Below, piece by piece: positions 21,672 through 22,206 of a stretch of 50,514 nt of DNA. Every line of letters starts with the position of its first letter. The first letter of the stretch is position 1. Origin of the DNA: a virus (taxonomy: Duplodnaviria; Heunggongvirae; Uroviricota; Caudoviricetes); the IMG/VR virus record IMGVR_UViG_2534681773_000022, one strand, 5' to 3'. The notes under the pieces are model-generated. The model was given only the letters and a program-made list of their open reading frames with translations, made no database searches and had not been told where the DNA came from. A program made the translations under genes and the position numbers.

Positions 21672-21887
21672 ATGTACCAGATGGAAAAAATCACAACAGG
21701 TGTGTCATACACCACGTCAGCGGTGGGAACGGGCTACTGGTTCCTGCAGTTGCTGGACAGGGTTTCCCCGTCTCAGTGGGCGGCAATAGGCGTGCTGGGG
21801 AGTCTGCTGTTTGGGCTGCTGACATATCTGACTAACCTGTATTTCAAAATCAGAGAGGACCGTCGTAAGGCTGCACGGGGAGAGTAA
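21672..21887 (+). CDS. S: Class II holin / pinholin of phage 21 S-type, with dual-start motif (Met1 and Met4)
   Basis: [71 protein letters not shown] closely resembles the remembered S21 pinholin; GGGAGACGGGG RBS. Confidence 0.85.
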
Positions 21888-21891
21888 TTCA

Positions 21892-22206
21892 ATGACTCAA
21901 AACTATGAACTGATTGTGAAAGGGATCCGCAATTTTGAGAATAAAGTTACGGTAACTTTAGCGTTACGGGACAAAAAACGCTTTGACGGTGAAATTTTTG
22001 ACCTGGACATCTCGCTGGACCGTGTTGAAGGTGCCGCGCTGGAGTTTTATGAGGCAGCAGCCAGAAGGAGCATCAGACAGGTCTTCATGGATGTTGCTGC
22101 CGGGTTATGTGAAGGGGACGAGCTGTTGCCAGAAACGCGCCCCTGTTCAGAGGCGCGGTATACCATAAAAATTAACAGTTCTGATAACTCGATTACGGGT
22201 TGTTAG
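21892..22206 (+). CDS. Hypothetical protein inserted between holin and endolysin
   Basis: 104-aa ORF starting 4 bp after the holin stop; no lysis-protein features recognised. Confidence 0.45.
   Translation: MTQNYELIVKGIRNFENKVTVTLALRDKKRFDGEIFDLDISLDRVEGAALEFYEAAARRSIRQVFMDVAAGLCEGDELLPETRPCSEARYTIKINSSDNSITGC

Follow-up and report, generated by a model that had tools for sequence, protein, structure and literature searches.

The 104-aa open reading frame (ORF) between the holin and endolysin genes of this lambdoid prophage is, on the evidence of profile matches and alignments, a YdfR-family (DUF1327) gene in the usual place for its family. The explanation that best accounts for the whole of the evidence, and that we hold with moderate confidence, is that YdfR is a late-transcribed passenger of the lysis cassette, probably standing outside the lysis machinery, for which binding to RNase E or RNA would be the most likely activity. 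The reading of YdfR as a late-expressed cytoplasmic passenger that is not a lysis component is held more firmly than the RNase E activity. The gene was studied within a stretch of 50,514 nucleotides from a tailed virus (IMG/VR record IMGVR_UViG_2534681773_000022), hereafter the window.

The lysis region of the prophage

The late and lysis region of the prophage occupies 19.6–25.3 kb of the window, with its genes on the plus strand (Table 1). By its encoded domains, the cassette is of the pinholin and SAR-endolysin type and includes Rz/Rz1. A first, sequence-only reading of this DNA had described a 71-aa holin of the phage 21 S type with Met1 and Met4, and an ORF that begins 4 bp after the holin stop. 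Its coordinates and these features were all correct (PF04971, E = 9e-33): the holin stop TAA occupies 21885–21887, and the four bases TTCA separate it from the ydfR ATG at 21892. The SAR endolysin that it placed after the 104-aa ORF was also confirmed, as a PF00959 lysozyme (22262–22795) whose sequence shows E35/D44/T50 and a Gly-, Ala- and Ser-rich N-terminal stretch. PGAP labels on a matching cassette, with 99.9% identity across the 1.7 kb that was compared, are class II holin family protein, YdfR family protein, lysozyme and lysis protein. Between the esterase gene and the holin lies a candidate terminator-like hairpin, through which Q-modified late transcription is expected to read.

Table 1 Features of the late and lysis region, in window coordinates.
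Feature	Position	Strand	Basis
SASA-type esterase, DUF1737 and DUF6645 domains	19650-21521	+	
Terminator-like hairpin then T-run, downstream of the SASA esterase gene and upstream of the holin	21604..21632	+	Pattern scan; candidate
Holin Shine-Dalgarno (SD) sequence GGGAG	21660..21664	+	Anti-SD duplex dG -7.4 kcal/mol
Class II pinholin, phage 21 S type, 71 aa	21672..21887	+	PF04971 'Bacteriophage P21 holin S', E 9e-33
SD sequence GGGGAGAG within the last holin codons	21877..21884	+	Junction alignment; dG -8.5
ydfR ORF, 104 aa, TAG stop	21892..22206	+	PF07041 (DUF1327)
ydfR conserved core, codons 1-75, three predicted beta strands then a long helix	21892..22116	+	PF07041, AF2 model
ydfR variable C-terminal tail (ending DELLPETRPCSEARYTIKINSSDNSITGC) and TAG stop	22117..22206	+	Alignments; disorder predicted
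Remnant of a small ORF, last 13 codons and stop (LPMKDTGKPTAKS, then stop)	22203..22244	-	Translation, alignment to both ends of the L027 insert
AT-rich spacer between ydfR and endolysin, 55 nt, GC 0.38	22207..22261	+	
SAR-type endolysin (R21-like lysozyme), 177 aa	22262..22795	+	PF00959 E 1.1e-24; phrog_7 endolysin
Rz i-spanin, GTG start overlapping the endolysin stop	22792..23250	+	PF03245 E 3.5e-41
Rz1 o-spanin lipoprotein, embedded in Rz in another frame; start codon approximate	23006..23197	+	PF06085 E 2.4e-20

The 104-aa gene belongs to a widespread prophage family

The homology search that the sequence-only reading had proposed led directly to the YdfR family. The 104-aa ORF matched PF07041 (DUF1327) over residues 1–96 with 133.7 bits (cut-off 25; E = 2.7e-39) and phrog_2735 over its full length (E = 3e-55). 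Because of the strength of the PF07041 match, a core dN/dS of 0.2–0.5 and a strong SD sequence 5 nt upstream, we regard it on sequence grounds as a genuine gene and no chance frame.

The same reading had treated the ORF as an unrelated extra gene that breaks a normally contiguous cassette. This view has to be given up, as the arrangement is the standard layout in the K-12 Qin prophage, in phages mEp460 and BP-4795, in the 101 of 434 phage records with this holin type that encode the YdfR core, and in most complete E. coli genomes. The order holin, YdfR, lysozyme is indeed already known as the annotated essQ-ydfR-rrrQ layout of Qin and from hundreds of lambdoid prophages and phages. The 225-nt core of ydfR was found at 8238 places, distributed over 4283 of the 5426 complete E. 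coli genomes (79%), which places ydfR among the most widespread E. coli prophage genes without an assigned function. In the explanation we favour, it would be a very common passenger of phage-21-type lysis cassettes in Escherichia prophages.

The family itself is small, with 78 representatives at 50% identity among 1.84 billion clusters; IMG/VR contains at least 569 DUF1327 loci. A search of 185,579 species genomes gave eight DUF1327 loci, all in Escherichia/Shigella except two in metagenome-assembled genomes labelled Veillonella parvula and Bacillota, which we suspect to be E. coli contamination. A profile search of a 5.8-billion-protein set listed close relatives only and added nothing, a second profile had no match among the viral contigs, and the DNA of a distant DUF1327 locus had none among the phage records; a metagenome scan for distant relatives found two contigs, both already in the set. 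The related loci examined here number 87, comprising the 8 from species genomes and 79 of 80 from viral contigs (L082, a partial match only, was left out).

The closest known systems share the architecture of the window and differ in detail. K-12 YdfR (b1555, P76160; cluster essQ-ydfR-rrrQ-rzpQ/rzoQ) is of the same DUF1327 family and has the same gene order, 4-nt gap and SD sequence, whereas its tail differs from about residue 70 onward. The plaque-forming phage mEp460 carries in gp55 a protein of the same 104-aa class, with the same 55-nt spacer and the order S-YdfR-R-Rz, but its holin (L043) is of the MKS type and 80% identical to the window allele. In the Stx phage BP-4795 (ORF47, 114 aa) the order is S-YdfR-R-ant-Rz, and the core is about 57% identical and is followed by another tail. 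The phage 21/Stx cassette S21-R21-Rz/Rz1 has the same holin family, SAR lysozyme, embedded spanins and SD sequence within the holin gene.

ydfR occupies a translation signal embedded in the holin gene

The start of ydfR lies 4 nt past the holin stop in 83 of the 84 loci in which both genes are complete, and this gap is constant although the holin alleles range from 76 to 100% identity to the window holin. The junction GGGGAGAG-TAA-NNNN-ATG is common to the ydfR-bearing cassettes and to the ydfR-less Stx phage P13803, where the endolysin gene R follows directly after S with the same 4-nt gap, in the place that ydfR takes in the window. The predicted pairing with the anti-SD sequence (dG −8.5 kcal/mol) and the spacing (5 nt) are the same for window ydfR and P13803 R. 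By comparison, the endolysin start has no SD sequence in the window (anti-SD dG +0.6 in the 20 nt before the ATG at 22262) or in Qin (+1.2). In Qin the endolysin is coupled to ydfR by a 4-nt overlap (ATGA), whereas in the window it starts after the 55-nt spacer.

From these alignments, the SD sequence embedded in the last holin codons serves whichever gene comes next, ydfR here and the endolysin where ydfR is absent. Since the junction is shared with P13803 and the endolysin here lacks an SD sequence, ydfR has captured the translation signal of the endolysin. At the holin-endolysin junction it has taken over the SD sequence within the last codons of the holin, with the side effect that the endolysin is left without one. 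A SAR endolysin lacking its own SD sequence in ydfR-bearing cassettes may matter for the modelling or engineering of lysis timing.

The use of this holin-embedded signal also implies that YdfR would be translated, like the lysis proteins, from the late transcript that depends on Q. A consensus-based scan of 21500–22300, which gives a weak negative, found no promoter-like site from which ydfR could be expressed on its own, and its 3′ end carries a weak hairpin and a short T-run (22181–22206). The sequence-only reading had suggested, as one possibility, a moron expressed with the late genes. What stands of this is an accessory gene carried by the late lysis operon and inserted where P13803 has two neighbouring genes; an own promoter was not found. 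Like the classical morons lambda bor and lom, ydfR is an extra gene between otherwise adjacent genes. Its GC content is slightly lower than that of its neighbours (0.47, against 0.53 for the holin gene and 0.51 for R, a small shift). Classical morons, however, are autonomous and expressed in the lysogen, whereas ydfR is co-oriented with the late operon and translationally integrated in it. We infer that ydfR is moron-like in position, yet expressed as part of the late operon.

YdfR is probably not a component of the lysis machinery

No ydfR is seen in the cassettes of Stx2a phages and of Shigella phage POCJ13, the holins of which are 100% identical to that of the window. Of the 434 phage records with this holin type, only 101 have ydfR. 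Among the related loci, YdfR and holin alleles reassort freely and do not co-vary. Distant stand-alone relatives of YdfR (72–94 aa) lie between tail genes, either gpM and gpL (L098, L099) or gpI and gpJ (L102, L103, L104), and other distant relatives lie upstream of unrelated holins (L100, L105–L107). YdfR looks like a passenger and not a lysis component because identical holins occur without ydfR and distant relatives sit among tail genes, and it is probably not a working part of the holin, SAR-endolysin or spanin machinery.

The sequence-only reading had named a lysis regulator as the other possible role of the ORF. YdfR would then be a dedicated lysis-timing regulator, a cytoplasmic antiholin-like protein that binds the C-terminal tail of the pinholin or restrains the SAR endolysin, comparable to T4 RIII acting on the holin T. 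We consider this unlikely, although several observations fit it. In Escherichia the place of ydfR is nearly always precisely the one between S and R (83 of 84 loci), and its translation is tied to the 3′ end of the holin gene; YdfR is acidic (pI 4.85), whereas the holin tail is strongly basic; and a K-12 ydfR deletion scored in an envelope-integrity screen, as cited in PMC13232886. That phenotype, however, could have arisen through polarity of the resistance cassette on rrrQ, the lysozyme gene downstream, and overexpression of K-12 ydfR gave no growth or envelope phenotype and was not toxic (PMC13232886). Positive evidence for a regulator did not emerge: Stx and Shigella phages with the identical holin allele are viable without ydfR, R follows S directly in P13803, YdfR alleles do not track holin alleles, and distant relatives reside in tail-gene clusters far from any holin. 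Searches of Pfam, PHROGs and PADLOC also gave no homology to a known antiholin or lysis protein, and the Pfam and PHROGs matches were to families of unknown function only.

The spacer downstream of ydfR retains the end of a lost gene

The 55-nt spacer between ydfR and the endolysin is the scar of a deletion, as alignment with relatives shows. In relatives such as L027, a 79-aa ORF on the reverse strand lies between ydfR and R; the left 40 nt of the spacer align to the 3′ end of this ORF, and the right 16 nt correspond to the conserved R leader. The reverse strand of the window reads LPMKDTGKPTAKS and then a stop, and that of L027 reads LLPMKDIGKPTETKG and then a stop. In close relatives, every gap between ydfR and R of at least 321 nt holds a reverse ORF of 79–104 aa. 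At the distant loci, a convergent reverse-strand ORF of 70–101 aa comes right after the DUF1327 gene in 12 of the 12 examined (among which L105 recurred as L109 and L106 as L108), and a 72-aa DUF1327 gene is paired with a phrog_25324 ORF at three different genomic positions. The partner ORFs fall into at least five PHROG families of unknown function, and an all-against-all phmmer comparison gave matches of 5–8 bits only, from which homology is not demonstrable; a single family of partners is not supported. The reverse ORFs beside ydfR may represent a two-gene module in which the partner evolves fast, or they may mark a hot spot of insertion.

If they represent a module, YdfR could be the surviving half of a mobile two-gene moron, in which the DUF1327 gene was paired with a convergent gene for a small helical protein and the pair had a toxin-antitoxin-like, exclusion, defence or counter-defence role, the window copy being orphaned. 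The recurrence of the convergent ORF at the 12 distant loci, of the phrog_25324 pair at three positions and of reverse ORFs in the long gaps of close relatives fits this account, as do the last 13 codons of such an ORF in the window spacer. Even so, we give it little credence. The partners belong to at least five unrelated PHROG families without demonstrable mutual homology, and therefore the pattern may reflect nothing more than a preferred insertion site beside ydfR. A partner is lacking from most Escherichia copies, namely those of the Qin class, the BP-4795 class and the class with 104 aa and the 55-nt spacer, yet selection still acts on them, and overexpressed ydfR is not toxic. Neither gene had a PADLOC match; in PADLOC-DB 2.0, this was so for window YdfR and for three long-tailed relatives, and a known defence system is thus unsupported.

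A conserved soluble core with an interchangeable tail

Alignments of YdfR relatives divide the protein into a conserved part, from residue 1 to about 75, and an interchangeable tail. Total lengths of the relatives are 103, 104, 114, 116, 161, 176, 183, 206, 268 and 287 aa, the distant relatives consist of the 72–76-aa core alone, and the longer tails (proteins of 161–287 aa) contain no Pfam domain. The window and K-12 cores are identical at 59 of 74 residues. In diverged pairs, the core dN/dS of 0.2–0.5 is evidence of purifying selection on this part of the protein.

Window YdfR has no transmembrane or hydrophobic segment (maximum hydropathy 0.68) and a pI of 4.85, and is predicted to be a small, acidic, soluble cytoplasmic protein. 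An AlphaFold (AF2) model, built with distant relatives in the alignment, was confident for residues 1–75 (pLDDT 75–92), and no structural relative of the protein was found. The modelled core has three antiparallel strands followed by a 25-residue helix (beta-beta-beta-alpha), while residues 77–104 have pLDDT below 50 and are predicted to be disordered. The product would therefore be, as predicted, a soluble cytoplasmic protein with a core of about 75 residues and a disordered, interchangeable tail.

These features bear on the two accounts in which the protein itself would matter little. In the first, ydfR would act in cis: by sitting on the holin-embedded SD sequence, it moves the SAR endolysin 370 nt downstream to a start without an SD sequence, the ratio of endolysin to holin falls, and premature, holin-independent lysis is limited. 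The difference between the endolysin of a ydfR-less cassette, which uses GGGGAGAG (dG −8.5), and the endolysin starts of the window and Qin (+0.6 and +1.2) agrees with such an effect, and all ydfR-bearing cassettes conserve the 16 nt that precede the endolysin ATG. A spacer, however, does not need the purifying selection seen at the protein level (core dN/dS 0.2–0.5), nor would the core be expected as a stand-alone 72-aa protein at unrelated genomic positions, and we judge a cis effect to be quite improbable. It is most improbable of all that the ORF has lost its function and is decaying while recombination within the lysis cassette carries it along, as might be suggested by its highly mosaic C-terminal part, by truncated, frameshifted and fused versions, by the neighbouring deletion scar and by the near absence of K-12 ydfR expression under laboratory conditions, given a dN/dS well below 1, a 104-aa frame intact in the viable mEp460 and in 66 of 87 related loci, core DNA at 8238 places in E. 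coli genomes, a strong SD sequence and a core fold predicted with confidence.

RNase E or RNA as a possible target of YdfR

The functional lead for the passenger that we favour comes from its K-12 ortholog. Full-length K-12 YdfR gave a two-hybrid signal with Rne1-597, and its residues 1–72, recovered three times, suffice for the signal (PMC13232886). These residues correspond to the conserved core, in which the window protein is about 80% identical. Rne1-598 eluted together with Strep-YdfR, with which nucleic acid resistant to DNase also co-purified (PMC13232886). As K-12 YdfR was assayed without a nuclease control, its contact with RNase E could be RNA-bridged. Overexpression of K-12 YdfR changed few transcripts and caused no toxicity, and the gene is silent under standard conditions (PMC13232886). 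A separate overexpression screen listed ydfR as raising the streptomycin MIC threefold (PMC12924614).

Several phages are known to target RNase E or the degradosome through small proteins that bind host RNase E, namely T4 Srd, which binds the catalytic half, T7 gp0.7 and phiKZ Dip (PMC4980113). K-12 YdfR resembles Srd in that it contacts the N-terminal catalytic half (PMC13232886; PMC4980113). No sequence or fold similarity of YdfR to the RNase E modulators phiKZ Dip and T4 Srd was found. Carried over from the K-12 ortholog, the likeliest activity of window YdfR would be binding to the catalytic N-terminal half of RNase E, to RNA, or to both, late in infection. This is the only functional lead, and we assign the activity tentatively, as the most likely one for YdfR but with the chances somewhat against it. 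A role as an effector of host RNA metabolism in the manner of T4 Srd, which we infer from this activity, would be the weakest step of the proposed mechanism. Were the lead true, temperate lambdoid phages would manipulate host RNA decay, like T4, T7 and phiKZ.

A more far-reaching combination joins this activity with the recurrent gene pairs. The DUF1327 core of about 72 residues might be the conserved half of a mobile module that hops between slots of lambdoid late operons (between holin and endolysin, gpM and gpL, or gpI and gpJ, and upstream of holins) and acts on RNase E or RNA late in infection, the window copy being an orphan with a 13-codon scar. We regard this as doubtful. If it were true, temperate lambdoid phages would have in YdfR, which about 79% of complete E. 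coli genomes carry, their first described effector directed at RNase E.

The two starts of the holin gene

The holin of the window is 79% identical to K-12 EssQ and begins MYQMEK, with Met1 at 21672 and Met4 at 21681. Its hydropathy is about 0.7 over residues 7–31 (a weak TMD1) and about 2.1 over residues 35–58 (a strong TMD2), and its C-terminus is charged and basic. A longer in-frame holin ORF of 97 aa, from an ATG at 21594, was rejected, as it crosses the terminator-like hairpin and PGAP calls the 71-aa form.

The canonical S21 long form carries Lys2. S21-71 and lambda S107 owe their antiholin character to an additional positive charge located between the two starts (PMC9636201). The sequence-only reading had taken Met1 and Met4 for the usual holin/antiholin arrangement. 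Both codons exist, but the MYQ extension of the window (Met-Tyr-Gln) has no Lys or Arg, whereas that of Qin EssQ (MKSMDK) is Met-Lys-Ser with Lys2. The single SD sequence of the window holin is 6 nt from Met1 and 15 nt from Met4, compared with 1 nt and 10 nt in Qin essQ, and a hairpin over the holin starts is marginal (z −1.76). On sequence grounds, the 71-aa form may be the main product and an active holin. Among the related holins (n = 84), 65 start with MKSMDK, 16 with MYQMEK and 3 with MDQMEK, and for the MYQMEK allele, which Stx2a phages share, an antiholin acting in the manner of S21 should not be assumed.

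Spacer and translation signal of the endolysin gene

In the region 22203-22261, the 55-nt spacer separating ydfR from the SAR endolysin gene (R) retains a remnant of a reverse-strand small ORF, namely its last 13 codons (LPMKDTGKPTAKS*). Intact versions of this ORF, 79-104 aa long, sit at the same place in related prophages, and on comparison of these sequences the spacer is a deletion scar.

As is the pattern of ydfR-bearing cassettes, the endolysin gene lacks a Shine-Dalgarno sequence (22242-22264; anti-SD dG +0.6). The endolysin of L093, a Stx-phage cassette without ydfR, uses a strong site in the final holin codons (L093 1749-1771; dG -8.5). 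Loss of the endolysin Shine-Dalgarno may lower the endolysin:holin ratio in ydfR-bearing cassettes.

In one related viral contig (L017 3371-4905), a transposase-like insertion splits the SAR endolysin gene behind its 18th codon; the holin-ydfR pair just upstream is intact. Two genome contigs from MAGs labelled Veillonella parvula and Bacillota (L009 and L011) contain Escherichia-type holin-ydfR-lysozyme cassettes, with lysozymes 94-97% and holins 79-80% identical to the window proteins; both contigs are probably E. coli prophage sequence assigned to the wrong bin.

Features flanking the cassette and reverse ORFs in related loci
Feature	Locus	Coordinates	Strand	Position
623-aa protein; DUF1737, SASA (sialate O-acetylesterase-like) and DUF6645 domains	window	19650-21521	+	directly 5' of holin
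Convergent overlapping gene, first of pair	window	23667-24287	+	just 3' of Rz
Convergent overlapping gene, second of pair	window	24229-25296	-	just 3' of Rz
Intact reverse-strand small ORF	L027	3312-3551	-	between ydfR and R
Intact reverse-strand small ORF	L096	1919-2194	-	between ydfR and R

Holin start and flanking genes

An upstream in-frame ATG lengthens the holin ORF to 97 aa (extension 21594-21671), and long holins are annotated in several phage records (92-96 aa in mEp460 and P13803). Because a terminator-like hairpin (21604-21632) lies within it, the extension is probably not translated; the long annotations likely represent recurrent start-site mis-annotation. The gene upstream of the holin recalls Stx phage BP-4795, in which yjhS, encoding a DUF1737-domain protein, likewise immediately precedes the holin.

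PGAP calls the two genes just downstream of Rz a 'sce7726 family protein' and a 'beta family protein'. Their matches in PADLOC are to 'cll' (E 3.8e-31) and to PD-Lambda-2_C / 'beta' (E 4.4e-32). Placed between the lysis and terminase genes, the pair is probably a moron for anti-phage defence.

Stand-alone DUF1327 genes

Distant loci (L003, L004 and L098-L107) carry stand-alone DUF1327 genes of 72-94 aa, located between tail genes (gpM/gpL or gpI/gpJ) or 5' of unrelated holins. Directly 3' of each lies a convergently oriented ORF, 70-101 aa long; homology among these partner ORFs was not demonstrable. The recurrence of a DUF1327 and phrog_25324 pair at three different positions suggests a mobile two-gene module.
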